From Balanoglossus misakiensis (Eukaryota; Animalia; Hemichordata), in assembly GCA_040954595.2 (NCBI GenBank), contig CM082580.2, positions 12,538,909 through 12,602,908 of the forward strand: 64,000 nt of DNA, read 5' to 3'. The position numbers and the translations under genes are program-made. Shown here piece after piece: positions 31,307-62,430 of the stretch (position 1 is its first letter; every line of letters starts with the position of its first letter). The notes below the pieces were generated by a model. It was not told where the DNA came from and made no database searches. It worked only from the letters and a program-made list of their open reading frames with translations.

Positions 31307-33777
31307 ATGGATCTTTCAGTGGAAACAATGGAAAAGGCGAAGGACTTGGCCTTCAACACAAAATGGCTTCTGGATCTCTTTATCTCCTTGGCGCATATGT
31401 TGACGATCTTTGTCGCGTGTTATGTTTTCCGAATCGTTGGCAGGAAGTTGGTGCCAAAAACCGTTTACCCATATGTTGCCGAAGTGATATGCATGTTCCA
31501 GTTGGCCGCTTGTTGCATGGAGAATGGTACCATCATATATCCCGAGTACGGCGTCTTTGCATACGCCTTCATCATGTTTTGGCTGACGGTCGGTTTCATC
31601 GTGACGTTCGACGGCAACGGAAACCCTTGTAACATTCTGGCAGAACTTGTTCAGAGGAGGATCACCCCGTCTTCCTTGCTGAGTGCGTGTGCCAAGATGG
31701 TTTGCTCGGTAGCCGGCGGTTTGATCGCCGTGCAGCACATCAACATGTTCTGGAGTTTCGGCGCCCTGGATCGCCACTGGCACCACGTCCAACAATTACA
31801 CATCCCCTGCACTTCCGCGATGAAGACTACTGTAGTGTATGGATTCGTGGCGGAGTTCCTAGCAACGTTTACCGTTCGGTTTGTCGCCGGTTTCCATCAG
31901 CTGGGCGGAAAACGGTGGCATAAATTCGTGGTATCATCGGTGATAGTAGCCGTATCTCTAACAGGTAAAGAGCGATTTAATCATTCGTTTGGGGGATCTG
32001 ATAGAAAAAGACGTAAAAGCTAGAAACAAATATCAGATCAGCCATGTCTATATTCTCATATATGATTAACATATGTTGAAGGCCAAGCATTTTATTACTT
32101 TAAAAATTATTTGAATTTTTAGTTTCATTTCACACTGTACACTTATTTTGTAAGACAACATTTAAAGGGACAAAGTCTCTCTCTCACTCTCATTTTCCCA
32201 TTTATTATGTTTGATTCACTACACTGTCTATGCTAATGCACATGTGGATATATAGTGAATCAACATTCAACCTTGCCTTTCCAGAGGGCGCCGTCAATGA
32301 CCTTTGGCTTTTCAGAGACGCGGTGCAAGACGTCTCTCCAAATCCGTTTGAGCTCGTGCTGTGATTGGCTAGTACCATGCAAGATGTTGCTTCATATGAT
32401 TGGCTAATATGCCAGACAGAAGTTCCATCGCGTGCATGGATCGCGTGCACGTTCGATCAGTACGCGTAACGTCCTTGTCACGTGACGTGGCATACGTGTA
32501 GAACAGACGTTCAGAACAACAAACGACACTTGTACTCGTAAATTATGATTACGTGTAAAATAATTCCGATTATCTCAATTTTTGGCGATCGATCTATAAA
32601 AATGAAATCGTGAAGTAAGTAGGCAACCATGGTGATACTTCCGGTGGAACGCCATTGACGAATCAGTTACCTTCCCCTAAATCGAAGGCCACTTCAGCGC
32701 TCTCATTGGTTGAACGAAACGGATTTGGAGAGACCTCTTGACCGCGTCTCTGAAAAGCCAAAGGTCATTGAGGGCGCCCTCTTGAGAGGCAACATTCAAC
32801 CATCACGTTTGTAGGATATGAGAGTAAAAATCTCGCCAAAATGAATAAATGGTAAACACCGAATATTCATTTTGCTCTCCCGTCTACAAGTGGGATGGAA
32901 GGTGTGTGTGGTTGAACTATGAGTAAAATTTCTACATAATGTTTACCATAGAGATTTTCAAAGTCACTAAATTTGGCGGCCATTTTGAATTCCATAGACT
33001 AAGCACAGATATAGGCGGCCATTTTGAACCTCAAATTTGGCGGCCATTTTGAAAGTCTTAATTTTAAGACAATTTTGAAAAGACCCCCCCCCCCCCCCCC
33101 CCGAATTTAATGAGTAAATGAAAAATTATTTTCGGCAAGAAATGGATAATCTAAAGTAGCCAAAAATGAATAATCAGTGTTTACCATTTATTCATTTTGG
33201 CGAGATTTTTACTCTCTCATCTATATGCAGGATGGAAGTTGTTTGTGGTTGAACGTTGATTCACTATATACAATGGTGTCTTGTATCAAACATACTTAAT
33301 GGGAAAAGGGCAGCAAGAGAGAGACTTTGTCCTTTTAATGTGTTAATTTGTCATATATCAGACAAATTCTTTAAAACTGAGTTTATGTGTCTGAATATGG
33401 GATTTTATATTATAACCCTCTTTCATGGAGTTATTTGCAAGAAAACACATACCAGTTTATATATTCGCTTATATTGTAAAAATTATTTTGTTACAGGAGC
33501 GGAGTACACAGGTATGATGTTCAACCCTGCCGTGGCCACTGTACTGACCTATAACTGCGCCGGGCATCATTTCTCAGAACACGTCACCACTTATTGGGCA
33601 GGTCCCTTCCTTGCTACGTTGGTGACAATCTACCTACAAAGTGTTATCAAACACTGGCAGAGGAAACAGCTGACCATGAAACCAAAGCAACAACTTCATG
33701 TGAATGGAGAAGTGAAATCACAGACAAACGAATCCCTCAAGCACCGAAAGACGCGTAAACGTAAACGCTATTACTAA
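31307..33777 (+). CDS. Unorthodox aquaporin (AQP11/AQP12 superaquaporin family)
   Basis: Exons 31307-31964 and 33497-33777 (TAA). Multiple hydrophobic helices. The first NPA box is the deviant NPC (DGNGNPC); the second is FNPAVA, followed by the subfamily Cys (TYNC) and YWAGP. Confidence 0.92.
32249..33270. mobile_element. Outer non-autonomous DNA transposon (MITE-like) with TA-flanked terminal inverted repeats
   Basis: Left end TATATAGTGAATCAACATTCAACC (32249-32272) pairs with right end GGTTGAACGTTGATTCACTATATA (33247-33270). A second inverted segment GAGAGTAAAAATCTCGCCAAAATGAATAAATGGTAAACAC (~32820) pairs with its reverse complement (~33177-33217). Three internal GGCGGCCATTTTGAA repeats. 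Confidence 0.75.
32273..32792. mobile_element. Inner MITE (520 bp) with ~77-bp TIRs and a 9-bp target-site duplication, Mutator-like
   Basis: TIR TTGCCTTTCCAGAGGGCGCCGTCAATGACCTTTGGCTTTTCAGAGACGCGG...CTCTCCAAATCCGTTT and its near-perfect reverse complement ending ...GGCGCCCTCTTGAGAGGCAA. Direct repeat CATTCAACC at 32264-32272 and 32793-32801. Confidence 0.85.
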
Positions 33778-35459
33778 ATCGCACAAATTTACATTTTAAT
33801 CAGTTTGAAGCTCCTAGACTATAAAAGTTCAGCTTTGTTTTATGTGCCACATTTTTTTATCTTTACACCAATTTAAAAAAATGATTTCAGAAGAAAAATA
33901 ATCCCACCACCATTAAATACCAATTTTTACCTCAATTCAGTACAATCCCTTTGTTTTCAGTGACATTGCATTTTGGGGAGACATGCACACATGGAAATTG
34001 GATTAAAATGGTCAAAATTACTGGGTATGTTTGATGTTTCATCAGTTTGTACGGCCAGCAAACATTGATGACCTTGCACAAGTGTTTAAATCTTTTTTTA
34101 AATGACCTGTGGGAGTTCCTAAGAATACACTGAAAGGACCTTGAACTCTGTGAAAAACATGTACAGTCACCCTAGTGAAATTATTTTCTTTATAGGCATG
34201 TCTCCATTGTTGAGACACAGTCAGATTCTTTTTACCTGGCCAAATCAATCAGATTTTATGTATTACATTTGTATTTTTATGTTGTATGAGTGTGGAATTC
34301 TTTTTAAGTCTCTGTTTCTGTAGACTACCGTACAGTAACTGAAACTCTGTTTTCAATCAAACTTCGTGGTACACTTGACACACCTTGTGACCTTACAACA
34401 ATGTCCACTATGCTATATTTTTAAAACTTTGCCTTCTCTTTTCTATTTGAAATCGACACGAAAATAGCTTAGCTTTTGTAGTGTAAAGGTCATGACATGT
34501 TTTCATGTTTAACCAGTGTGACAATTGAGAAGTGTTCAATTCAAACTCTTCTTACATTTGATGTGAACCTTTCACCAAATAAAGGAAATATGTACATTTT
34601 AATTTAAAGATCATCACTATTTTCTTACGATTTAAAATTTGTTACAGTCTTTGCATCTTCACCTTTTATAAATATCACATTGTTTATATATACTGTCATC
34701 TTTTCTAAACCCGAGCATATCATAACTCATTTGAAAGATTTGTCATTTACTGCGAACCATACACGTTTTTGTGTCAGGTTACTAGACTGGCACAGTAAAT
34801 TACTGTGATTTGTACAAGATAAGATAACCATAGCAACAGGAATAAGCAGTTCTATTCATGCTAGAATTTGCGCAATAGATAAGTAAGGTAAGACAGTAAA
34901 TTTGAAATTGGGAAACGTGGTTTTAAATAGTTGGTAATAATTTATTCTTATAAACTTATGTCATGTTTGTTGATGTATGTACTAGTGTGTAAGTATCACC
35001 CTTTTATCACTGTAGTTTAGCCTTAAGTTATGTATAGGATGGTCCTAACTAGTTAACGAACAGAGGTGGTAGAGGTTTAAAGTTTACTTCTGTAGAAGTT
35101 AATCATTCAATTGTGTCTGACGAACAATTCTCAACAAGCTCTTCGGGTCAGCTCGTTGAGATGTTATTTCTACATTTAATTCATATCGTCCATTTATGCA
35201 AATGCACTGATGTCATTAAAAGTCAATAAAACCTATTTTTGAATGGTACAGATGGATTTGTTTGATTTCACCAAGCATGAATACTGACAATGGAATGTTT
35301 TTATCGGTTTATTCTTGCGGTGAAAAATAAGAACTCTGTGGAATCCTAAATACAAAATGCATGTACATCACACAAAACAATTTGGAAGTCCAGCCAGACA
35401 TGTGGGAGGAGTGGTTCCAGAGAGCACTGTTGTACGATTCTTTTTTGTTGCCATGGAAA

Positions 35460-38400
35460 CTACTGACCAACATTGTCAGCAGAGAAAATGCGAGGTTCGT
35501 AGGATGAGCTGTAGTTGCCAAAGGCACTGTTGTAGTTTGGCAGTCGGCTGACGGTCACGGCATCCGAGGGGATGAAAAATAATGGAACAAACGACACCTT
35601 GCCACTCAACCAACACTGTAAGCGAAAAAATACTGAAGTCACCCAACCTTGCATACTGTTGCATAAAGTTACTTGTGTATGTATGACCAGAAAATCCGAC
35701 AATAATTACGGAAATACAAGAAGTAAAGCCACTGACTGTATCTAAATAAGGCAATCAAGTCTTACTTACAATTGTTAGCATGGCACCTTTGTCGAAGTTT
35801 GGTTGGAAGCTTATCAGCTGTGGAATATCTCCTGGGTAACCTTTCACGAAACCACTGTGGAAAATAATTTGAGTGCGCTTATAAATATGAAAAAATATAA
35901 ACATGAAAAGCTTCACTGTCATTTATATTCTGTCACTGAACATGATTACTGGTACAGTTTTTTTAAGGGCAGTACCCAGAGGAAAATTTTGCTGGGGTTC
36001 CCTTAGGAATGGGTAAAAGAATTGTTACCAGGGTTACCAAATAATTTAGTACTTTCAAGCACATTGATGACCACAGATTTGAGCAAAGAACTTACCACGG
36101 CATAATTTCAAACACTGGTTTGAGTCTTGTTCTGAAGACTGCCACCAAGTGGCCAGAATTGCCTGAGTCTTTCCTTCCGGCAAATATGACAGCCAGTCTC
36201 TCTCCAGTGGGATCCCAGGCCATATCCTGAATTTCCCCACCGACACTGACAAAACGATATAGGGATGACCAGGTGATTAGTGATTTCAGCAGGAACATGA
36301 TGGCCATGAAGACAGGTAGGCTAGTTGTGGAGGTCATCATAGTATTTGACCCTATTGGTCACATGGACCTAATTTTTGGCATTCACTTAAACGAAACCCA
36401 TTTTACAGTTCATTCAAAGACTTTTAACATTCTGTTTGTAAACAGAGCAATACAAGCATGTTTTCCTCACCAGATATCAGATCCATCTTGTTCAAGACAA
36501 ATTTCTGACAAATCTGCACACTTTACTGCTGTTTTGGATCCGCCAATCAAGGCATTATTCTCGTGGAAAGACAAGGAATAGATGACCGGTTCCTCTGTGA
36601 CTGTAAATAGCACAAGATCTGCTTTTGGACTCCAGCAAGCCGACTGGCATCGTCCGGATACATTGGACCACCTTTCACACGACCAAGTCTGTGTTTCCCA
36701 CACTCTGCAAAAGACACCATTTTCCCCCTTATTTCTGGATTTCTTGCACGAATTAAATAATTAATTATTTTGTCATAGAATCTACAAAGGCCAGGTGAAA
36801 TACATGACAATACCTTCAGGTGTAATACTGTACTCTAAACTTGCCAAGTGATGAACAGTGAAGTATGTGCTGTGCACACTTGGGACCTACCTGAAAACTG
36901 AAGAGGGAGTCCCAGCAAACACTTTGGAACAATCAGGAGACCATCTCAGAAGCGAGACTCCACCACCACCAATACGGCGAAGAGCTACGCACGTCTCCAT
37001 GGCAACATTCCAAACCTATCAGATCGGGGCGAAAAATAAACTACTGTACACATGGCTACAGATCTGAGTACTTCATTGTCTTTTGATCATAAATGACATT
37101 AAACATCTTCATAATGGCAAAAAGGACCCAATTTTACAGTCAGAAACAAACAGAAATCATGAAGATTCTGTGACTGCATCTCAAAGACATTGGTGTTCCC
37201 AACTGTCACCAAATTGTCCCAAAACCTTCATAGCATCACTCACCATCATGGCAGTGTCTGTTGGTGATGCTGACAACAAGAGATCTCCGTCTGGATGCCA
37301 TGAAATCTGTGTGACTGGCGCATGGCCGTTCTGACTCAGCACCTGGACTGAACTAGTCGATGGTCTGCAAAAAATCCAATTCAACATCATTATGAGCTCA
37401 TGCACATTATCTTCGATAATATTTCCCCTTTGCACCTCTTCAAATATTACAATATTTCTGAATGTCTCTTCTTTACAAATATTTCTTGGTGATAAATGTC
37501 GTGAAAAGAAAAATGTTACAGACTTCACCATGTGATCTCCTTGTGTCTCTGCCAAGGGCACCTACCAGGATACAAACAATGCAAAGTTGTAGTTTCCATT
37601 CAAGGAGAGAAAAATCACCTACCTAGTTGACAGGGACGTTGGATCTATGTGCCATATGACTATGCATGTTTGACAGGCCACTGCAAGCACAGAGGCTGAT
37701 AACGGTTTCCATGCCAACATGGAGATACCTTTCTGTAGTTTGTGTTTGCATATTGGCATTATCTCACTGAAAAAGAACAAAAAAAGTGTAGCGTCTACAG
37801 CAAAACATGCCAATTCTTATGTTTTTAATCATTTTCGTTGGACTAGTAAAATCAACCTATAATCTCCGACATTTAGAGTGATCGTTTTGTATTCATTTAC
37901 CCTGTTAAACTCCTACCTTTTCACTGCATGTATTCTTATGCTGTCATTTTTACAAGCCACAGCCATCTTGGTTGTGTACGGGTGCCATGCGAATGATCTG
38001 ATCGGAGACTGGTACCAATCTTTTGTACTTGAAAATACGTCAACCATCTCCTCGTTTGACATCTACACGGGAAGAAAATGACAGCTTTGATTATGTTATG
38101 GCCGTGACTGCATCTTTCTTTCAAAGTCAATACATGGTTTAATAGGTCCAGAAATATACAAAATCTATCCAATAAGTTGTGTCACTTACCACTAAATGAG
38201 GAAATAGGGAACCATGTAAAGAGTTTCCCCATCTGACCATTGCTAGGCAACCACTGCATAGTGATGATAACCATGGTGATACTGAAAGTAACAGTTGAAT
38301 CAGCTTAGATTACAAATGTAGGAAGTTTTCTAGCCTAGCCAGAGAAATTTCTTGTGTTATATCAAATGAAAATTGTGAAATATCTATGTATTAATAACAT

Positions 38401-38648
38401 ACTGGTTTGCACCACTAGAAGTGTATCAGTAACTACGCACTAGCATACCTTCCGATTTGCTGCTGGCAACCTCTTCCAGGACTCCAGTCAGACCATGTTC
38501 ATACCACGCACTCATGCATCTTTTCCACACAGTTTCACAGTGTGGTAGAAATGCAGACTTGGCACTGAACTGTGATGATGATGGTCGCAGACTTTCTGGT
38601 GTTACGTCTATTTTGGGATAATTTACTTTCTGCAATGAACATGATTTG

Positions 38649-38690
<42 letters not shown>

Positions 38691-38909
38691 GTCACCATCA
38701 TCATCATCATCACCACCACTACCACCACTCTTTCAAAGGCAAAGGGACTAATACGGGCTGACAGTCCGTTTGCACTTTACCTGAGCACTGCGCATGTAAA
38801 CACTGGCATCTTCTTCGCCAGCTCTGCTGTGTATAAACTCACTGTGTAATTCGCACACGGTTACATAGTTCTCAGGGGGTGGCGCACCAAATGTACTTAG
38901 CAGAGACAT
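35460..38909 (-). CDS. AAAS: Aladin, WD40-repeat nucleoporin
   Basis: Exons 38909-38781, 38629-38449, 38281-38190, 38062-37917, 37766-37623, 37364-37244, 37015-36891, 36704-36471, 36245-36096, 35854-35770, 35615-35460 (TAG). Motifs include [80 protein letters not shown] and [12 protein letters not shown]. An acceptor just upstream of the ATG (38921-38923) implies a non-coding first exon. Confidence 0.94.
38649..38728. repeat. (ATC)n/(ACC)n microsatellite in an AAAS intron
   Basis: Directly visible. Confidence 0.95.
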
Positions 38910-38929: not shown

Positions 38930-39626
38930 GATAAAAGAAATTACAGTTATCGTTCCAGTGCTTTGCTGGTAGCCCTGCCACTCCCACCAGACTCCCTTGG
39001 CTGTTGGGGGGGGGGGGGGGGTGGCACGACGGGGTTACGATCCCCGGCAATCTCCATGGCTACACATGTACAAGTCATTCATTGCAAAGTGGTCCAGTTA
39101 CCCGGAAGCTGTATGCCTGAAACATTTAGAGGATATGTTCCTATATGTGATCATAGGTATCTACATATGCGTGCATAAACCGAACGGTGTCAGAGATTAG
39201 AAATACGAGTGTGATTAATTTAAAGTGAAAGCGTTTACCGTAATATTAAACTATAACTCTCACACTACTTCTGCAAGTGGATGGAAACCTCTTATATTCT
39301 AATATGGCGGGTTTCTGATTGCACATGCGCGACGACACGTTTTGACCTTATTTGTTTACATTTTTGCAAATTACACGTGGGAAGTTGCCGCCCCTTTTTA
39401 TTTTCTGCTATATACTGCGGGTAAACAGAGTCCACGTTTCTGAATTCAAATACATTTTTACAGTGACCATTGCGCCACAAATCTTGGTTTTATTTTCAGT
39501 CGATTAAAACCTAAACCCATAACCCGGAAGTGAAATGCGCACTTAAGTTGACCCGTCAACATAAAGTGGGAAGCACATCCTTCATCGTCGAAGAGCATAG
39601 ATGCAAAAATGCATGCATCGCTGACC
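38930..39626. promoter_or_regulatory. Probable bidirectional promoter between AAAS and CYP20A1
   Basis: The ATGs are head-to-head and ~720 bp apart. ETS/GABP-type CCGGAAGTG at 39524-39532, YY1-like AATATGGCGG at 39301-39310 and NRF1-like GCACATGCGC at 39321-39330. Confidence 0.5.
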
Positions 39627-43090
<3,464 letters not shown>

Positions 43091-43945
43091 GTGTGCCAAT
43101 CCCAGTAGTACTCGTAACTTAAATTTCAATGAATGACTGTATCTGTATTTAAATAGAAATTTTAGACGTTCAAAATGTCTTTAAGGTACATATGCCAATA
43201 CACAGTGGTAAGATAATAAGTATTCTAGTGACCCTGCTTATAGGCACACATTTTGTGTGGCCCATCCACTGTGGTTGTCATTCACTTTTGCATGGTAACT
43301 GTGGCCAACGTTGCACAGGTAACCATGTACCTTCATTAATGAACTATAGACAGTAACATGGCTGCCTTTTGTACCGGCAGTTTTTAGCTAGCAAGCAGCC
43401 AAATCAAACACTCATTGCAGTGGCTATAATAATAAATCTGTTATGTATTTTTGATTTTGTTTATTATTTGTATTGGGCATATGGTCTGTGTTGAAATCCG
43501 TAGATACTCACACATCACGGAAGTAATGTTTCCTGTAGGGAATATGACAGTAACTTGTTGGAGAGTCTACATTGACACAAAATCATGTACTTGTAACAAA
43601 ATATGTTTTTCTGTGTTGACTAGGCTGATGTAAAGTCCCTAAACTGTGTAAGTTAATTCTCATCATGTGTATAAATTGCAAGCCAATGTGGACTTGTTTA
43701 CCAGTTCACTGCTGTATTAATGTGTAAAACCTGCCTGATTGATACACAATAAACTGTCTGGAGTGGACATAGAAACATTGCAATATGGTTCTTGAGACTG
43801 ATGTTTGTAATATTGTACCTTTGCAAAAATCAGAAGTCGATGATATATAGTTTATATGTTTCTTCCATTGGGTCCCCATCAAAACTCTGTTGACCTTTAG
43901 TTTCTTTCAACAAAAACAGTTGCATTGTTTTAGAAAAGTATATCA

Positions 43946-44158
43946 GTGTGCAACTGCATGCATATTCGGTGTAAATTTGTACTTTGGGGTCAGCACGTGC
44001 GTGGCACAGCGTGTGGTTCACGACGTCCTAATATTAAGAAATCTGTGACAGCTGACACCACTGATCTCGAGTGGGCTGTTCTGCACATGCGTGCACCGAT
44101 GTATAAAACGTGTCGATAGGGTGACTGACTTCAATGCTTAGTATACTACGTGCGTGCA
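43946..44158 (+). promoter_or_regulatory. Probable ZIP copy 1 promoter: TATA box flanked by three MRE cores
   Basis: TATAAAA at 44102-44108. Reverse-strand TGCRCNC cores at 43946-43952 (TGCACAC), 44089-44095 (TGCACGC) and 44152-44158 (TGCACGC). Confidence 0.5.
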
Positions 44159-44195
44159 GTATAGTATGCGTGTACATGTAAACAACAGGCTGATC

Positions 44196-47100
44196 ATGGC
44201 GATGCGTCCGTTTTGTCTCTATTTATTGGCCCTTTCTTTCTGCCCCGTGGTGAAAGCCACTGCCTCACAGGTTCAAGTTGATGTTCTTGACGCACTCGAC
44301 CAAGTTCGATTGCCCACACCAGAGGTTTTCCTTGACGATCTCGTTCACGAGTACGGAAGTGGTGGAAAACTGTCCGTTGATGAGTTGGAAAACCTCTTGG
44401 TGAAGTTGAATGTTGGGGGAATTCGGAGGAAGACAGCGATCGCGGCAGTCGATGATCAGTCAGGCTTCAACGTACAGAATCAACGGGAGGCCACATTGCA
44501 GTCGCAGAGTCAGGTGATGCGAGTGGCCGATGCTTCAAGGAGAGAAAAGTCACTTGAAATGAGTAAACAGGTTAGTGGCTTTCATTGTTGACATTGACCA
44601 GTTAGTAAAACTTTTGACGGACAATTTCGTTAGGATAGTGTGTACGTTCTTACACATACAGTACTTGTTCACGTTGTTGTGCCAGTTGTAAATGTTTTCA
44701 GTGACAATCATGCATCTATACTTGTTTAGTTTTAGTCGCGTGAACCGCGCCCGGGCCACGATCATCAGATGATGTGATGACCTGAATTTTACGTGGCCGG
44801 CTAGGTGGCCTACATTATTTGCATACAATAAGATGTAAAATGAACTTTGCGTTACACTTGCTGAATCAAAATAAAGTCACCAAATAATGCATTTTTTTAC
44901 CGCGATTTAATCTCCGTGTCATATTCCCCATTGATCAATAGTTAATTACTGGGTAGCAGAAGTATTACCATGACAACCGTTGCCAAATCCTCCCGAACAA
45001 TAGCAAAGAACACTGCCCTGCATGAACCAGCTGTTATTAGCTCTGATTGGTTGTTATCTATACCCATTCATTTCACACAAAAGCACTGATTGGCTGACCC
45101 CATTTCCCCAGAAAGTATGAAACAAAAAGCCAGATTTAATTTATATTAGCCAATTCACACCATGTAAATTAATCACTTGACAGCAGGGTGTCCTTAATAA
45201 CATTATCAGTTTGCTATATTCATGAAATTTTCAATAGGAAAACACTTATGGTTCTGTTGATGATGGGGAATTAAAAGTGTGAATGGGTTTTATTTTCCCA
45301 TGAGATTGGTTACAGGTCATCCATGATATTCCCTTCAGGTAGCCGTATGGATTGTGTCCTCACACCACAATTTAATCACAAAATTTTAATAAGAGTCTTA
45401 TATTAATCAGTGGGATTTGAAATGACTTGGATAGAATGAATGTCTATTGGGACTGGACTTTGCTTGGAGACTCCTCTCACACAGAGCTGACACAGATCAC
45501 TTCACTTTGTTCTGTGGTGTAAATCCAGTGTGGTTGACAGATGCCTTGTTTTTTCACATGTCTAGACGCATTTAGTCAGGTTGAATGCCTTAAACAATTG
45601 CATTCGTAGTTGGCATTGTGACTTGTCATGTAGTTACATGTATTCTGTTTTCTTTCATGATGCAATTTAGCGTGTATGAAGATGTTGATTTTCATCGTGT
45701 TCAAGGTGCCTGCTTTTAACCTTTGTCAACGACAATGCATCATAAATAAACTATATTTGCTCAGTGTCATTTCATGAAAGTAGACCTTGACATCCTGATT
45801 GTAGTGACTACATGTACTGACTTGGCGACTTCCCTTGACTAATTTGGCACCCAGAACAGTAATTTAAATTATTAAGTAGATTATGCTTGTAAGTATTAAT
45901 CTTGTTTCTTAGTGCCTTTACAGAATGTAATACTAGTACAATCTCTTGTCTTTTGCAGTGTTATTCTACCTCCGAAATTATGCAAATCCACAACCTGGAG
46001 CCTACTTCTGAAGTTGACCAAAAAAAGATGTCAGAGATGTGCCCCGTTATCCTCCAACAAATTGGAATGGGGTGTGGCAGTGATGGGGGCTGGGAGGAGG
46101 AGGAGGAGGAGGAGGCAAGATTGGATGGTGACGAGAGCGCTGGGGAGGAAATTCTCATGTTTGAAGACGTGTGGCTGCGCAGAGTGCTACGGAGTACAGA
46201 GAACAACACCGATGACGACACAAGCCCCACAACGGCTCAAGGTAAGCGTGTGCTGACAGAGCTGCCGGTCAAAGTACTGATTATTCAGCCGTTTTTAGGT
46301 CAGCATCAGATTGAAATATGCCTCACTGTATAGTGATACACTTTAGGCCCTACACTGTACCACTTGAACTACTTTCAAGTCGAAGTGACCTATTTGATAG
46401 CGGGCCAAATAAGTACATGTGGGAGAACGCATACATATGATTGTGCGTATTTCTATGGCCGTTTCATGCATGCTCTTTTGTTTGTACCAGAGTGTTTTTG
46501 GCTTGTTTGAATTCCGCGGTTTCACAGACAAGGGGGGTGAAATGATGGAGTTGGATGGTGTGGGACGATTTGGGTGTTCATATTCATTGCCCTCCATTTT
46601 TTTGCAGGTTGTATATAATATATAACTGAGAATGATTAACTTCATTTTGTGTGTTTCTCTCCTCAGTCTGGGGTTATAGTTTTGTCTGTGTGACCATAAT
46701 CAACCTGTGTTCTCTGGTGGGTGTTCTGGTGGTACCATTTATGAATAAGAAGTACTACCAAACCATATTGATGTTTTTGATCTGCCTCGCTGTCGGGACC
46801 CTGTCTGGTAGCTCGCTGCTCCATCTTTTACCCGAGGTAAGTTTTTCGAAAAGGATTGGGGAAAAATTTTCAGTGCATTGGTGTTCATGTGATGTTGAAA
46901 TATATTGTTGCTATGATTTCCTTATAACCATTTTGAAACTGAGGATATTCATTTTCAGCATTATAAGTATTAATAATATTTTTATACAATCTCTGGAATT
47001 CAGCCTTGACTGTGCTGTTTACTCTCATTGATTGTCAGGCACATGGTTTGACTCCTGATCTAGAGTATCTGCTGAAGAATTTGACAGTTATCGGTGGAAT

Positions 47101-47589
47101 CTATCTCTTCTTTCTGACGGAAAAAATTCTGAAGATTTTCATTGTGAGGAAAAAGGTAAGATATACAAATGTTATTAGGAGCTTTAGATTTTTTGGGGGT
47201 ATATATTCACATATTTTGTTGAACGAAAATTTTGAAGCTGTATGCTGTTACCCTCATGGCCATGCGGTCAATACGTGTGGATGTACATCTGCCCATGTGC
47301 TAAGCACTATGTGGATATCAAAGACACAGTAGACATAGCTTCTAAGAGAAACTTGACGATGGTAATTTTCTCATAATAACATTGCCAGCAGAGACCGTGT
47401 TCTCAACACCAGCATTTTACTTCTGCTTGTCTCTAATGTCTTTTTCACATCTTGCAGAGGCTGGCGGACGAGAAGGCCAAAGAAAACTCTGGCGGGGAAG
47501 CTCCGGACATCATGCCGATTTGTTCGATAACAGCAAAGCCAGGCCATGGTGAGCATCGCATTATAGAGCCCGTTGAATTAGCAGCAGAG

Positions 47590-47624
<35 letters not shown>

Positions 47625-48861
47625 CGAAAATGAGAATCATGATAAACCCAAGTGCATTGATGGGAGTGAAGAGAGTGGAGTTGTGCTCGTGGTGGATGAG
47701 AATGGAACTCGGGTATTTGAAACTCCTCTTCAGGTGAGTAAAAAGGTTGGAGGGGGGGGGGGGGGGAAGCAGAATGAAAGAGATTGTGTTGAACAATTAT
47801 TTGGGAAAAAAATACAAAATAATGAATAAGTTGGAGTGCTTCAGATATACCTCATGTGCATGTAGCACTGTGTGATAATATACACTTTTAAATCATGACA
47901 ATTGCAGGAAAAGGATCTCAACGGAGAAAACCAAGATAACGGAACTATCAACAACATGCATGAACATAAGGCCTGCGCCCACACGGTGCTTGCAGAGGAT
48001 CAAAGTATTGCCACAGTGGCGTACATGGTCATCTTCGGCGACGGTCTGCACAACTTCATTGATGGATTGACCATCGGTGCAGCATTCACCGTCTCTGTGT
48101 TGGGTGGGATTAGTATATGCATTGCTATCCTGTGCGAGGAGTTCCCTCATGAACTGGGTAAGTAAGAACTCAGTCCTTACGTGGTTGCGTTTTGTTTATA
48201 CATTTAAATCCTATTTTTATACACCATCCTTCATTACTCGTAAATTGTGAGCAAAAATTGGACCAATTAGTATTGTCTGTTGACATCTGTTGGCTATCAT
48301 GTTTATTCAACCATTTTTGTTTGACTCCAACTTGCAGGGGATTTTGCCATCCTGTTGAATGCTGGGATGTCAGTGAAGAGAGCGCTGTGCTACAATTTCC
48401 TGTCGGCTTGTATGTGTTATCTGGGTGTGGTGTGTGGTATTTTGTTGGCTGAACACACAGAGGGGGCTGAGTGGATCTTTGCCATTGCCGCTGGCATGTT
48501 CTTGTATATCTCCCTTGTTGACATGGTAAGTTTTGTAGGCATTGCTGAACGCACACTCCGTGTAGTTTTGGAACTTTAAATGTCTTGGATGGATGACAAA
48601 AATAACGTCAGGGGACAGGATTTGTCCAGTGTTTCTCCTGGCAAGAGGTCCCTGACCCGTTGGTGAAATAATTTAAAGAAACCAATGATGATGTTTCTGT
48701 TCTCTTCACAGTTGCCTGAAATCAACACTGTAGAAGAAAGAGAAACCAACATGTCTGGTGCAGCACAAGCAAAGATATTTCTTGTTCAGAACCTGGGTTT
48801 GCTGACCGGATGGGCTGCCATGTTGGTGCTGGGAGTCTTTGAGACTCACATTGTTCTATAA
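44196..48861 (+). CDS. LIV-1 subfamily metal importer, ZIP8/ZIP14-like (SLC39A8/14), copy 1
   Basis: Exons 44196-44570, 45959-46241, 46667-46836, 47039-47155, 47458-47733, 47908-48157, 48338-48525, 48712-48861 (TAA). Signal peptide, CPVILQQ (PAL-like), TM1 [12 protein letters not shown], a His12 cytoplasmic loop, [10 protein letters not shown] (TM4) and [11 protein letters not shown] (TM5). EEXPHE in place of HEXPHE is the ZIP8/ZIP14 signature. Confidence 0.93.
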
Positions 48862-49778
48862 AACCAAATAAGGGAGTGGGGTTGTTGAAATAAACCCCTC
48901 CCCTGCCACTCTGTACACCCCTTCTCAATAGTGTTATGTTCTGCGAGTAGTTGTTTTCAGAAATAATGTTTTTATCACAGGGTGCTATGAGGGGAAAAAT
49001 ATAATTTTTGCAAGAATACTTATTGTACTGATCAGAAGACAAGCTGACAATGATTAGTTTTTTATCAGTAAACACAAATCATTCTCAGTGAAATGTTTTT
49101 TGCATAGTTGCTATGGCAACTTTTGCTACCATGGTAGTCCCAGCAATCACTGCCATATAAAAATTCATATCAATTTCGGCAGTTTTGATCCCCCTGGCAA
49201 TTTCAACTGACATTCCATTTCAATACAGTTTTTCAAGGCTGGGTATGATGACTATACAATTTGTGCAGATACGGCAAGCAATTTATTTTTGCATTACATT
49301 TTGTGTATGCGGTTCAACAGGGCAAATACATGTAGTTTACTGGAGATTTCGTTTTATGAAAATGGGAATAGTCAGTGCTTGAAGAGTACTGCCTTCTAAG
49401 TGCCATTACTCTTCATGTCCATTAATTTTTTTTACATGCTATTTGCTTTAATACGACAAAAATCCAGTTTATCTTTTGCAATGGTGGCTAGGAATCAAAT
49501 TAGGGGTCAAGGAACCATTAATGTTCTGGGGGGGGGGGCAGTGGATGATTAAAGCAGGAGCAAGACACATGAATATTTTTTCTAAGGCAATATGGCTTAC
49601 TGATGGGAATCTAAAATTTATCTTCAAAGGTTTTAATTTGGGGCGAGCAGTATGCGAAAATATGTGTCCTTTTGACTGAGAAATGACTGACCCTTTGTTG
49701 GCAGACTGAAAATAAGAGTCTCTGAGTCTCTGCCAAACCTTGATTTCTCTCTTTTTGTGCTGTCAGCCATTGAAGGCT

Positions 49779-49809
49779 GTGCAGTCAAATTCAGTGCAAT
49801 TTACTGCAT
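49779..49809 (+). promoter_or_regulatory. Canonical iron-responsive element (IRE) hairpin in the probable 3' UTR of ZIP copy 1
   Basis: G-TGCAGT-C-AAATT-CAGTGC-AATTT-ACTGCA-T: 6-bp Watson-Crick lower stem plus a G-U pair, unpaired C at 49786, 5-bp upper stem, CAGUGC hexaloop. Sense strand, ~920 nt after the stop codon. Confidence 0.75.
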
Positions 49810-49997
49810 TTACATTTTTTTTTATTTTTAAAAGAAACGAAAAACAATTTATGTGCCTTATGAGTATTATCTTACTCATTCCCCATCGTATCTCAACCAG
49901 ACACGTCTGATAAATTATATATGTATTCATAGGTATATATATATTTTTTATGAAATATCAATCAGTCTTTTTATATGCCCTTGTTTTGTGATCAGGG

Positions 49998-50237
49998 GCA
50001 GTGAAACTCAGTGAAGTTTACTGTGCATCAAATGTACATTTTATTTAAAAACCACACCACAAAGTTGTACTTTTTGTGTGTTTTGCCATTCAAGTTGATT
50101 TTATTAATTGAAGTAATTACGATTGATATTCTGTACATACGGTGAATCTCAGGGAAGATTACTGTCAGATATTTGTATGATCATTCGTTGGAGTTGTCAT
50201 CACTCGCTCACTAGAGCAGTGAAACTCAGTTTACTGT
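49998..50237 (+). promoter_or_regulatory. Two degenerate IRE-like sister hairpins
   Basis: 49998-50024 GCAGT-G-AAACT-CAGTGA-AGTTT-ACTGT has the same geometry and loop type but a G bulge. 50216-50237 GCAGTGAAACT-C-AGTTTACTGT has the same stem with most of the loop deleted. Confidence 0.5.
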
Positions 50238-51395
50238 GCCTTCAAGTTTCAATATGCATTTGTATATGTAATATTATGTATTGATTGAAACACTTTTATA
50301 TTGTAACAGTTTCAATTGCTCCTTTTAATAAGCGATGAAACTCTGTGTTAAGTTACAGGTCACACGAACCAGGTATCAGTCTTTTTCATAAGCAGAAAAA
50401 GAGAAAAGACTCATGTGCATATAATTAAGATTATCTTGGGACCCTTTTCATATACTCTTTAAAAATTAACATAATACTTAAAAAAACATAGCAATTTTGT
50501 TTTACTTTTTAGTGGAGTTTTGTCTGTAACTAGCTGTTAGGGTTGCTTTGCTTACACTAATTAATGCAATTAAATTTTACCTTCATAAGGTCACAATCAT
50601 TAATTTTCTTTGCTTTGTGTGAACACCTTAGACTATAAAGCACAAAATTGGTGTTTCCTTTTCACAATTTTTCTTGAACTCACTGTAGGCTTCTCTGCTT
50701 CTTTTGAACAGTTAATAACAGCTACATGTAAGCTATATCCTATGCAATTAGTGCTGTTCTATGCAACCAGCCCCAAAAATCTTGATCCTGAGGCTGAACA
50801 ATGGAGACTGTTTTGGCGGTGACCAGGTAGACAGATGTATACTGTTGCCCTCATCATGGCCAGACAGTATGTGCTTACTGTCACATTCAGTATGCACATC
50901 AGTTGGTCCAAGTGTGTGAGTTACATTTAGCTCTTATATACAATCTTTGTTGATCTCTGGTGTTTAAGAATTTTCACAAAAGTAATGACGATCTGGTAAT
51001 ATTACTGTAAAACTAAAGCAGCTGTTGTAATCCAATATTGACTTCAACATTTTTTGCATAGTATGTGTATTTGCTCCTTTGGCAAGATGCAAGTTGGTTA
51101 ATTTTGATTAAAATTGGCTCTCATACACATTCTGGTCTGTGCGTCTTCTTATATCTCATGTGATTAAAATTCAAATCCCATTCCAATTTCAACCTGTCAG
51201 TCCCGTTTCCTTTCTCACGGGTTGAGATTTGCCATTGAAAACAATTGGATCAAACCAAGTGATATTGGTTAAAGGGTGAAATGTGTGAAAAGTGTCACAG
51301 TACAGGTATGTGCACAGTAAACGTTGTGGACTTGAAAAGTTTCAGTACAGACATCAGTGTTTACTTTCATGGCAGGTATCTCTGCGGAAGCTTTC

Positions 51396-53600: not shown

Positions 53601-56600
53601 ATGGTGACGGTCACGGTAGCAACGACGTCGCTTTATTTCTGTTTGTTTTTGGCGGCGCCTGTCTGGTCGCTGGAAAAGTCCTCTCTCCCGCAAGTGGACG
53701 CTTCTTCTACGGACACCGGCGACGCAGGTCGACTTTCACACACCGGCCTGCCCTCTCCGGCGATTTTCCTCGGCCAGCTCGTTCGGGAGTACGGAAGAGA
53801 TGGAAAACTGTCAATTCAACAGTTGGAGCAATTCTTGCTCAAACTGAACGTCGGTCGGAATTCGGCCGAGGCCCAGAAGACCGCACCCAGTAGCAAGGAC
53901 TTCAACAGACGAAATGATGAAGATGAATCGGGGGCAAAAAATATGCACAGCTATTCACAGTTGCAAATGATGGATGATGATGGCCCGCAAACAGACGGGC
54001 GGGTGAGAAATTTTAATTGGGTTATTTGCTCCATTCTGTACGTGTTCTGGCCACGTCAGTGAAAAGCTGTTAATTTTAGCTTTTAACTTTTCAGCATGGA
54101 CTCAAAACTGGGTTCTGCTTCTCATCAAAGCGTGTGTAATTTTAATCATTGCTCAGACGACTAATGGATTTAAGATACACTACGCGGGGCTGTGTCATTA
54201 CACTATACGCTCCGTGGAGCAGTTGACTCGCAAAAACAAAATAGCCTAACCTCTTAAAAAACTTTTTTTCGGTCAAAGCCTTGAACTATATGTGTGGGTT
54301 GTGGTTTGGTCACGCGCACTCAGGCGTTTGATCGCGATCGATGCCACCACCGAACGTGAATGAAAATGTCCAGGTGGGCGGAGTTATCCACGATAGTTCT
54401 GAGTGACAGGCTGTGATGCATAGTCGTTGTGGTCCTACCTTTGCGACAAATGTTTGGCATTACACTGAAAAGGGGTGCCTTATATAATATCCGTGGTTCA
54501 AATGCAGGAAATATCGCCATGTTTGCATTAATGGCACTGACTCTGGCTGTTCTGCTAGGGTGCTCGGGTGCCATATCGGGTTTGTTTTATTTTCCTTAAC
54601 ACAGTGCTACTCTACATCTGAACTTCTGCAAATCCACGACCTAGAGCCCACAGATGAGGTTGACCGCTACAAGATGTCGGAGATGTGTCCCGCCATCCTC
54701 CAACAAATCGGAATGGGCTGTGGCAGCGACGAGAAGGGGACACGAATTGATGACGACGATGATGACGATCCCATGTTTGAAGGATCATGGCTGCACAGAA
54801 TTTCACGGAGTGCAGACGACGACCATCATGATGATCACCAAAGTAACAATACTGGTCCACCTCCAACATCTGGTGAAAGTAAGCCTATTTTTTATATACG
54901 CACACGCCCGAATCATTTAGCAATGCTTTAATTCACAGGCTCATTTCCCATTAGCATGTGACTAAATGTTCTAAATCAGTATCGTCATGCATCTGCAAGC
55001 AAGGGGGGAGTGAAAATTGTAGTGGGGTACACCTGCCCGACTAAGTGTGGTTCCCTGATTAGACCAGATTGTGCAGCTGACGACGACGTTCTTATTATAT
55101 TTTGACTGTGGTGATTGCATAAATATTCGTCTTTTTAATTACCCCCTTTGCCAATTTTCAGTCTGGGGTTATGGCATCCTTGGCGTTGTTGTCATCAGTG
55201 CTTGCTCGTTGGTGGGAGCGTTGGTTGTACCAGCAATGAACAAGTCCCATTTCCAGTACATGCTGATGTACTTGATCTGTCTAGCCGTGGGAAGTCTATC
55301 GGGTGGCGCCATAATCCATCTTGAACCCAAGGTACGTAAGCTTGGCCGATTTCGGGAGAAAGCCATACATTCTCAGAACCACGTTCGTGTTCTTACGACA
55401 CAAGCTATTGATTCATACATGTACATAATGCAGACACTCTTGTACTCTGACTGATAGTGCATATCAGTGCGTGCCCAGGGTACGTGCACACCTATTACAC
55501 GTGGAGCAGCTTGCATCATCGCCCATATTGCATGTTAAAGGTGGGCGGGTATCATGATGCATGTTGAGTGAGAACAGAGGGCACGTGAATGAACGTTTTG
55601 GGGGTGACTACACCTGTACGATTTGCCCATCCTTGTCCCCCCTCCAATTTCAGTCACACGGAACCCACCCGGATCTCGAATATCGTCTGAAGAGTTTGAC
55701 AATTATCGGAGGCATATATCTGTTCTTCTTCACTGAAAGAATCATGAAGATGTGCATAGCAGCGAAAAAGGTAAGACACACCTACACGATCCCCAAGCTC
55801 TTGACATAATCGTTGTGTTGGTGTTACCCTAGCTGATATTCGTTCTTATGATATATGATTTGACAGGATATCTCATCGTGGCTTATTTCATTTTTCCCTT
55901 TATTTCCTTCACAGAGGCGAAAGGAAAACAGGAAAAAGTCAGCTAAGTTTCCCAAAAATGAGAGCGAACTTGTTCTCATTGTCAATGGAAAAGAACATGT
56001 GACCGAAACATCATTTCAGGTGAGTTCAAAACTGCCGCGTTTCATTCCCACATTCAAACGCAACAAGTCAGTATTTCCGGACACAAAGACTCAGAGAGTA
56101 CGGAACCAACACTTGTGGAATATGGTTCAACTGATATCCGGCAGTATCAAAAGCAGGACGTGTCACATGGATTTTGTACATCCTCCGAGAACAAAGTCTC
56201 TTTGGACTGTTAAGTTTACAAACCTGCAAACATAATCCAAGCCAATGTTATTCATAATAAGCAAATGATACTATTGTCTTATATATTAAAGGAAAACAGC
56301 ACCAAGACCACAAACATGACGAACGGCCCTGCATTGGGCTTAGACCATAAAACGTGTGGTCATGATCACATGGCGCTGGTCGAAACCAATGGGATCGCTT
56401 CGGTCGCCTATATGATTATCATCGGTGACGGCCTTCACAATTTCATGGATGGATTGGCCATAGCTGCCGGCTTCTCCACTTCTCTCATCAGCGGACTCGG
56501 AATTTGCATCGCTATTCTGTGCGAGGAGTTCCCTCATGAACTGGGTGAGTGTGGTTTATCAGGAACTGATTGTCTGTCCCTTAGTAGTTCTGTCTGTTGG

Positions 56601-57187
56601 ACTGTGTGACTGATTGACCCATTCTCTCTCTCTCCTTGCAGGAGATTTTGCCATTTTGCTAAATGCCGGCATGTCGGTGAAGAAAGCCTTGCTGTGCAAC
56701 TTCCTATCAGCCTGCATGTGTTTCGTTGGCTTGGTGTGTGGAATTTTGCTGACCGAATACACAGACGCCGCAAGATGGATCTTTGCCATTACTTGCGGAA
56801 TGTTTCTCTACATCGCCCTCGTCGATATGGTGAGTATTGTACAGTATGTGTATCTGGGCGAGTGAATCTGGTGCCTTTTGTGGCTCTATCACAGGGAAAC
56901 GGGATTCCGCTTGGCACTTAATTTCCCTAGGCGGACAGAATTCGCCGCTTCAAGATGCTTCGAGAAACCCAATGATTATAGTTTTTTTTTTTATCGGCTG
57001 ATTGCTGTACCTGTCCTTTCCATTGCAGCTTCCTGAAATTAACGTCGCAGAGGAAAAACTGGAGAATGTTACCTGGACCACACAGGCATGCATTTTCCTG
57101 CTCCAGAATCTTGGATTACTGACAGGCTGGGGTATTATGCTTGTCATTGGAGTCTTCGAGTCCAGCATCAAACTTAAGAAATTGTAA
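53601..57187 (+). CDS. ZIP8/ZIP14-like (SLC39A) metal importer, tandem copy 2
   Basis: Exons 53601-54002, 54605-54878, 55162-55331, 55654-55770, 55915-56019, 56292-56544, 56642-56829, 57029-57187 (TAA). Same 8-exon structure and intron phases as copy 1; [17 protein letters not shown] and [11 protein letters not shown] present; frame open throughout. Confidence 0.92.

Positions 57188-58074: not shown

Positions 58075-62430
<4,356 letters not shown>

Follow-up and report, generated by a model that had tools for sequence, protein, structure and literature searches.

The 64,000-nucleotide stretch of the acorn worm Balanoglossus misakiensis analyzed here (positions 12,538,909 to 12,602,908 of the forward strand of contig CM082580.2, assembly GCA_040954595.2; hereafter the window) contains three tandem genes for metal transporters of the ZIP (SLC39) family. 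The first of these, copy 1, is followed on its sense strand by an array of four related hairpins (HP1 to HP4; Table 1), one of which has all the hallmarks of a canonical iron-responsive element (IRE), the RNA structure bound by iron regulatory proteins (IRPs). An earlier reading of this DNA from its letters alone (the sequence-only reading) had placed a single IRE in the probable 3' untranslated region (UTR) of a ZIP8/ZIP14-type transporter.

Copy 1 consists of eight coding exons (44196-44570, 45959-46241, 46667-46836, 47039-47155, 47458-47733, 47908-48157, 48338-48525 and 48712-48861) that join at AG/GT boundaries into an open frame for a product of 602 amino acids. The cytoplasmic loop of this product includes 13 consecutive His codons, at 47588-47625. 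Exons 6 and 7 match the Pfam Zip domain, and exon 6 is 73% identical to a Ptychodera ZIP14-like protein, the nearest relatives of copy 1 being hemichordate ZIP14-like proteins. A quick maximum-likelihood tree (32 rows) puts copy 1 on a short branch inside a hemichordate clade (support 100) and a Ptychodera subclade (99), set apart from ZIP6; from this placement the host is probably a ptychoderid. All three ZIP copies carry the motif CEEFPHE in transmembrane segment 5 (TM5), in which Glu stands in place of His (EExPHE) and marks ZIP8 and ZIP14; by this motif and the grouping, copy 1 belongs to the ZIP8/ZIP14 subgroup, which bears out the transporter type named in the sequence-only reading. The Glu of EExPHE has been tied to broad Fe/Mn specificity, and a four-residue variant of human ZIP8 that includes E343H was shown to lose Fe and Mn transport (PMC10372143). 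Copy 1 retains the E343 equivalent, while the Q180-equivalent site in the TM2 filter is His in all three copies. On these grounds, import of Fe2+ by the copy 1 protein is likely.

HP1 lies 917 nt past the copy 1 stop codon, which ends at 48861, and no open reading frame of at least 110 amino acids crosses it on either strand. Volz (2021; PMC8466369) sets out five sequence and structural features of IREs, and all five are found in HP1: a five-pair upper helix (Watson-Crick throughout) above a lower helix; the cross-loop pair C14-G18 in the loop that begins at 49792; the triplet A15-G16-U17; a U or C rather than G at N19 (here C19); and a bulged, unpaired C8 with no G at n25 (here A25). A SIREs-like scan, run with the published rules (PMC2896125) and not on the server, classes HP1 as motif 1 with zero mismatch and no G-U pair in the core. 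The isolated 31-mer has the exact IRE register as its minimum-energy fold, at -8.8 kcal/mol and with 51% of the ensemble, and its stability z of -3.0 is equaled by 2 of 200 shuffles. The hairpin itself is confirmed. The sequence-only reading had the sequence and coordinates right; its distance of about 920 nt agrees with the measured one, its statement that every IRE rule is obeyed holds for the five published features and the 7-bp lower stem, and the check by SIREs rules that it had suggested came out in its favor.

HP1 is far beyond chance. Of 20,000 dinucleotide shuffles of the region downstream of copy 1 (48862-50600; 1,739 nt), one produced a canonical IRE whose lower stem was 5 bp or longer and 35 produced the bare IRE core, while none produced two relaxed hairpins together, a result to be read with the array copies being related and not independent events. 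Markov simulations yielded 0-0.12 per Mb for IREs whose lower stem is 5 bp or longer, and none in any of the four 25-Mb runs for 7 bp or longer. In this respect the picture of one IRE on a ZIP gene stands; it was incomplete, however, because HP1 belongs to a cluster of three to four hairpins with mixed C and G bulges.

Table 1. Features in the window and the evidence or character on which each entry rests
Feature	Coordinates	Strand	Basis or character
ZIP copy 1, ZIP8/14-type (SLC39A8/14-like)	44196..48861	+	AG/GT boundaries, open frame, Pfam, exon identity, tree
Proximal AATAAA; would yield a short, hairpin-less isoform	48889..48894	+	signal sequence
Upstream stem-loop, predicted competitor for the HP1 5' arm	49751..49790	+	folding
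HP1, canonical IRE-type hairpin	49779..49809	+	U7-A25, C8 bulge, 5 Watson-Crick pairs, CAGUGC loop, 7-bp lower stem
HP2, G8-bulge IRE-type hairpin	49996..50026	+	CAGUGA loop, 5 Watson-Crick upper pairs, 5-bp lower stem
HP3, G8-bulge hairpin	50137..50167	+	CAGGGA loop (G17), 5 Watson-Crick upper pairs, 5-bp lower stem
HP4, relative of HP2 minus 5 nt of loop and upper stem; not an IRE	50214..50239	+	26.9 bits
Candidate distal ATTAAA, then U/GU-rich tract	50569..50574	+	first signal beyond the array
ZIP copy 2, derived tandem paralog	53601..57187	+	tree; no IRE-grade hairpin downstream
ZIP copy 3, derived tandem paralog	58075..62430	+	tree; no IRE-grade hairpin downstream

On both strands of the window, only HP1, HP2 and HP3 have a CAG(U/G)GN loop on an upper stem of five pairs that a single-base bulge separates from a lower stem of 5 bp or longer. 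When the loop may be any 6 nt, four hairpins with five Watson-Crick pairs above a bulge and a lower stem no shorter than 5 bp are found on the two strands, with 0.55 expected per strand; three of these four have the CAG(U/G)GN loop, and they lie on the sense strand no more than 390 nt apart. HP4 was recovered by a model built solely from the other three hairpins (E 1.2e-4). HP2 departs from the classic C8 rule with its G8 and keeps the loop and spacing, with A19; it fits the G8 variant of invertebrates and is a candidate G8-type IRE. HP3 departs from the classic rules at both C8 and U17, and HP4 cannot be an IRE. The G8 is common to HP2, HP3 and HP4, and the U7-A25 pair is present in HP1, HP2 and HP3; by our count from Table S1 of Volz, that pair occurs in 24 of 38 classic IREs (PMC8466369).

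All 30 stem cells of HP1 to HP3 are paired, and the ten stem pairs comprise three double changes, one one-sided change and six that are invariant, whereas slid alignments of the same sequences are 27-47% paired and contain no double changes. The flanks and spacers are non-homologous (z below 1.7 in 24 of 24 flank comparisons), so that only hairpin islands of about 30 nt have been kept. Such islands are the pattern expected when an RNA structure is under retention. The covariation is suggestive, and together the covarying hairpins make selection on RNA structure more credible.

Certain other accounts of the array were tried and set aside. The hairpin spacing suggests a 217-nt unit duplicated in tandem, but the spacers are without homology (z 0.09). 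Within the window, an origin as a dispersed repeat or as the end of a transposon is contradicted by the lack of any further family member above 15 bits. A role as 5' IRE of copy 2 is ruled out by inference, the array being 3.8 kb upstream of the copy 2 ATG.

We favor, with moderate confidence, the reading that the array lies in the 3' UTR of copy 1 and is bound by IRP under iron scarcity, stabilizing the mRNA and raising metal uptake; that the copy 1 mRNA is under IRP control, be it through the array or through HP1 alone, is quite probable. A long isoform that ends near 50590 or later would carry the array: with the distal ATTAAA at 50569, the 3' UTR would be about 1.7 kb long and include all four hairpins, and further candidate polyadenylation signals are found at 49548, 51107 and 51163. 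The AATAAA at 48889 may give an isoform without IREs. Apo-IRP1 would have high affinity for HP1, lower affinity for the G8 hairpin HP2, and little or none for HP3. Binding, perhaps by freeing HP1 from a competing fold, would shield the AU-rich UTR from decay, and the transporter would then import Fe2+ besides Zn and Mn. With ample iron, IRP1 would acquire its Fe-S cluster and leave, and the mRNA would decay. The logic is that of TFRC and DMT1, whose five 3' IREs and one 3' IRE, respectively, are stabilizing (PMC10351883; also PMC13094726); decay of TFRC mRNA is carried out by Roquin (PMC10351883). An RNA-binding IRP1 is inferred for the host animal because IRP1 is present even in sponges (PMC7034838). 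Furthermore, G8 IREs that apparently work, and that are structurally unexplained according to Volz, occur in brachiopods, annelids and arthropods including crustaceans (PMC8466369), and the G8 IRE of crayfish binds IRP1 in vitro (PMC4184891).

Several results weigh against this reading. With three sequences the covariation is not significant, as 37 of 500 shuffles reach it. The G17 of HP3 breaks the AGU triplet. In the isolated ensemble the canonical register holds a share of only 2% for HP2 and 18% for HP3, whose bulges are predicted to slide because G8 can wobble-pair with U24. Mammals need C8, their IRP1 binds less tightly after a C8-to-G change, and the lineages known to have G8 IREs do not include hemichordates (PMC8466369). 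In human ZIP8, changing Q180 to His alone raises Zn/Cd preference about twofold (PMC10372143), and mammalian ZIP8 and ZIP14 protein rises with iron loading, the opposite logic (PMC5574447, PMC9409945). The AATAAA at 48889, 28 nt past the copy 1 stop, could end mRNAs before HP1, as could the ATTAAA at 49548. The Rfam IRE models, another check suggested by the sequence-only reading, went against it: they matched nothing, either in the window at the gathering score or, by E-value, in segments of 3.2 kb, 71 nt (to E<=10) and 61 nt, in searches run without a positive control. An IRE covariance score is a screening criterion and not a structural feature, and the weak snoRNA and other Rfam matches that did appear were judged to be chance.

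Folding in the native flanks raises a further objection. The IRE fold of HP1 is not the predicted favorite there, its register costing 2.0-4.0 kcal/mol because the stem-loop at 49751-49790 captures the HP1 5' arm; with 45-nt flanks this cost is at about the 95th percentile of 150 random placements. The corresponding costs are about 7 kcal/mol for HP2 and 1-2 kcal/mol for HP3. By simple arithmetic, 2-4 kcal/mol amounts to 25- to 700-fold weaker apparent binding. Most reported dissociation constants for ferritin IREs are 5-90 pM, with three in the nM range (Table S3 of Volz), and a pseudo-triloop bonus of 1-3 kcal/mol (PMC8466369) is omitted from the folding model, so that IRP binding to HP1 is still feasible. 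The inner 5-bp hairpin of the upstream stem-loop is compatible with the IRE fold, and the predicted competition between that stem-loop and HP1 could act as a two-state switch.

The array was also sought elsewhere. A metagenome comparison covered the best 80 of 487 relatives (from 52 of the 64 parts of the collection; 500 kb), and 24 of the 80 loci, each with EExPHE, a C-terminal match and at least 1.3 kb downstream, were used for the array test, the other 56 being dropped. The array is present in 0 of these 24 other ZIP loci, another count against it; none of the 24 best-matched a hemichordate, and the result thus limits the range of the feature and is no test of conservation. Single weak cores were seen in two of the 24 (L001 and L018), and L018 is the sole match in a pattern scan of all 80. 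That match (L018:13975-14005) is a single C8/CAGUGU core whose lower stem has just 3 bp; it lies in GC-rich DNA, 2.8 kb downstream of a gene of the ZIP8/14 type, and is probably due to chance. The hairpin model R1 found nothing better than E 0.56 over the 80 loci, and the viral collection gave 0 matches to the hairpin pattern. A further 19 loci from the genome collection, all prokaryote, were outside the hairpin scan.

The best surviving alternative, which we consider unlikely, is that only HP1 works as an IRE, giving single-IRE control as in DMT1 or CDC14A, and that HP2 to HP4 are decaying duplicates. HP2 and HP3 do lack C8, HP3 lacks U17 and HP4 has lost its loop; moreover, the predicted cost of freeing HP2 from its surroundings is about 7 kcal/mol, and IREs mostly occur singly according to the Volz table (PMC8466369). 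Decaying copies should break pairs, however, and yet all 30 cells pair, with the three double changes among them. HP2, HP3 and HP4 also have G8 in common, and homology persists in the hairpins while it is gone from the flanks.

Somewhat less probable again is the proposal that the hairpins are outside the mRNA or functionless: a chance IRE-like palindrome was locally duplicated, its pairing was kept by template-switch repair, and transcripts end at the AATAAA. The canonical form of that signal at 48889, the competing fold and the lack of an Rfam match are all consistent with this, and scanning very many windows will meet some chance IREs at 0-0.12 per Mb. The words CAGT and ACTG are also somewhat common in the window (303 and 311, vs about 237 expected). 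Against it, HP1 is on the sense strand behind a transporter of an iron-capable type and is matched by only 1 in 20,000 regional shuffles, and the family has no further member above 15 bits in the window. Template-switch repair would explain the pairing, but not the retention, in three copies, of C14, A15, G16, G18 and the 5-bp spacing.

Weak triloop hairpins of 5-6 bp, putatively of the Roquin type and scored without a control, occur at 50066, 50275 and 50291. Together with the decay of TFRC by Roquin (PMC10351883), and with a G8 stem in HP2 to HP4 that forms an extended helix along which the bulge can slide and that persists in HP4 as a stem without a loop, they suit a selected element whose G8 hairpins serve another factor (a decay nuclease or a Roquin-like protein, with destabilization or translation control possible) and which binds IRP at HP1 only or nowhere, an account that we think improbable given the perfect CAGUGA loop of HP2 at the exact IRE spacing and the binding of IRP1 by G8 IREs of other invertebrates (PMC4184891).

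The reading that the array stabilizes the copy 1 mRNA through IRP can be extended, tentatively, to a broader one: that in acorn worms a ZIP8/14 importer is the IRP-controlled iron-uptake gene with an independently evolved, TFRC-like array of C8 and G8 copies, graded affinity and a polyadenylation switch, and that its paralogs have shed iron control. Copies 2 and 3 form a derived pair in the tree, and there is no array or IRE-grade hairpin in the 3,000 nt downstream of copy 2 or the 1,570 nt available downstream of copy 3. Neither has the run of His or the long loop seen in copy 1, and in both TM2 ends in EPK instead of LPE; a separate derived ZIP group from Ptychodera adjoins copies 2 and 3 in the tree.

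The region upstream of copy 1 has features of its own. In the 300 nt at 43896-44195 there are nine RCGTG sequences on the two strands, vs 2.6 expected, and 1 of 1,000 shuffles has as many; we take RCGTG to be a HIF-type core motif. The same 300 nt contain three matches to the metal-response element (39 of 1,000 shuffles have as many), and RCGTG occurs once upstream of copy 2 and not at all upstream of copy 3, where the segment was offset by 11 nt. From these motifs, copy 1 may be under transcriptional control by hypoxia/iron and zinc on top of any IRE. Among the neighboring genes, an Aladin/AAAS-like WD40 gene is at 35400-38760 on the minus strand, one exon of which matched Pfam, the only identification in Pfam searches of 16 other open reading frames in the window. 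A multi-exon gene at 39600-43100 on the plus strand, ending about 1.1 kb before copy 1, resembles by eye a cytochrome P450 (CYP20-like), and a last exon with an NPA motif at 33500-33780 looks aquaporin-like, also by eye.

The IRE/IRP system is itself well known; what is new is the putative target family, the 3' array in an invertebrate and its mixed C8/G8 make-up. No SLC39 gene is among the 38 classic and 83 IRE-like entries in the Volz tables, where the verified genes with 3' IREs are TFRC, DMT1 and CDC14A, all mammalian entries, and TFRC alone has several (PMC8466369). No report of an IRE in ZIP8 or ZIP14 was found in the literature covered, including passages of PMC12467715 and PMC10452680, with Piccinelli and Samuelsson (2007), transcriptome-wide lists of IRP targets and most subscription papers outside that coverage; nor did that literature yield anything joining IREs with hemichordates, or SLC39A14 with IREs and SIREs. 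An SLC39 target in an invertebrate deuterostome would, if true, extend the IRP regulon to another transporter family and reveal how iron uptake is controlled outside the vertebrate TFRC system, with a logic opposite to that of mammalian ZIP8 and ZIP14. On the broader reading given above, stabilization by 3' IREs would predate or parallel the vertebrates, and one natural IRP would read both bulge types. The presence of C8 and G8 copies in one UTR would make the unexplained function of G8 testable with a single IRP.

Among the closest known systems is the TFRC 3' UTR, which likewise has several IRE-type hairpins over some hundred bases, in a long 3' region that is rich in AU and belongs to a gene of the iron-uptake type, the U7-A25 pair below the bulge, and one member with an imperfect loop (A17 in TFRC IRE A, PMC8466369; G17 in HP3). 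The array differs in its gene family, its unrelated stem sequences, its invertebrate host and its single C8 member, the rest being G8, and its function is putative; where TFRC has several IRP-binding IREs, it comprises one canonical hairpin, one G8, one G8/G17 and one with its loop deleted. Like the +IRE form of DMT1 (SLC11A2), and the CDC14A plus-IRE variant, copy 1 would combine a 3' IRE, in this case on a divalent-metal importer (Fe, Mn), with possible +IRE and -IRE mRNAs. DMT1 differs in having a single IRE with a 3' bulge and isoforms that arise by alternative splicing and have different C-termini (PMC10452680), whereas here the protein is an SLC39 member and any isoforms would arise by alternative polyadenylation. 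Mammalian ZIP8 and ZIP14 (SLC39A8/14) share the EEFPHE transport motif and the grouping away from ZIP6; unlike copy 1 with its array, they are absent from the IRE genes in Volz Tables S1-S2 and their protein rises with iron loading, and at the TM2 filter site Gln takes the place of His in the four vertebrate ZIP14s that were aligned. The sponge NAALAD2 gene likewise has a predicted 3' IRE in an invertebrate (PMC7034838), which differs in being single, a prediction only and in a different gene, with no Infernal score in Volz Table S2. Finally, the G8 ferritin IREs of crayfish, shrimp and polychaete resemble HP2 in combining a G in place of C8 and a CAGUG loop; they occur singly in 5' UTRs of protostome ferritin, whereas here G8 and C8 hairpins stand together in the 3' region of a deuterostome gene.
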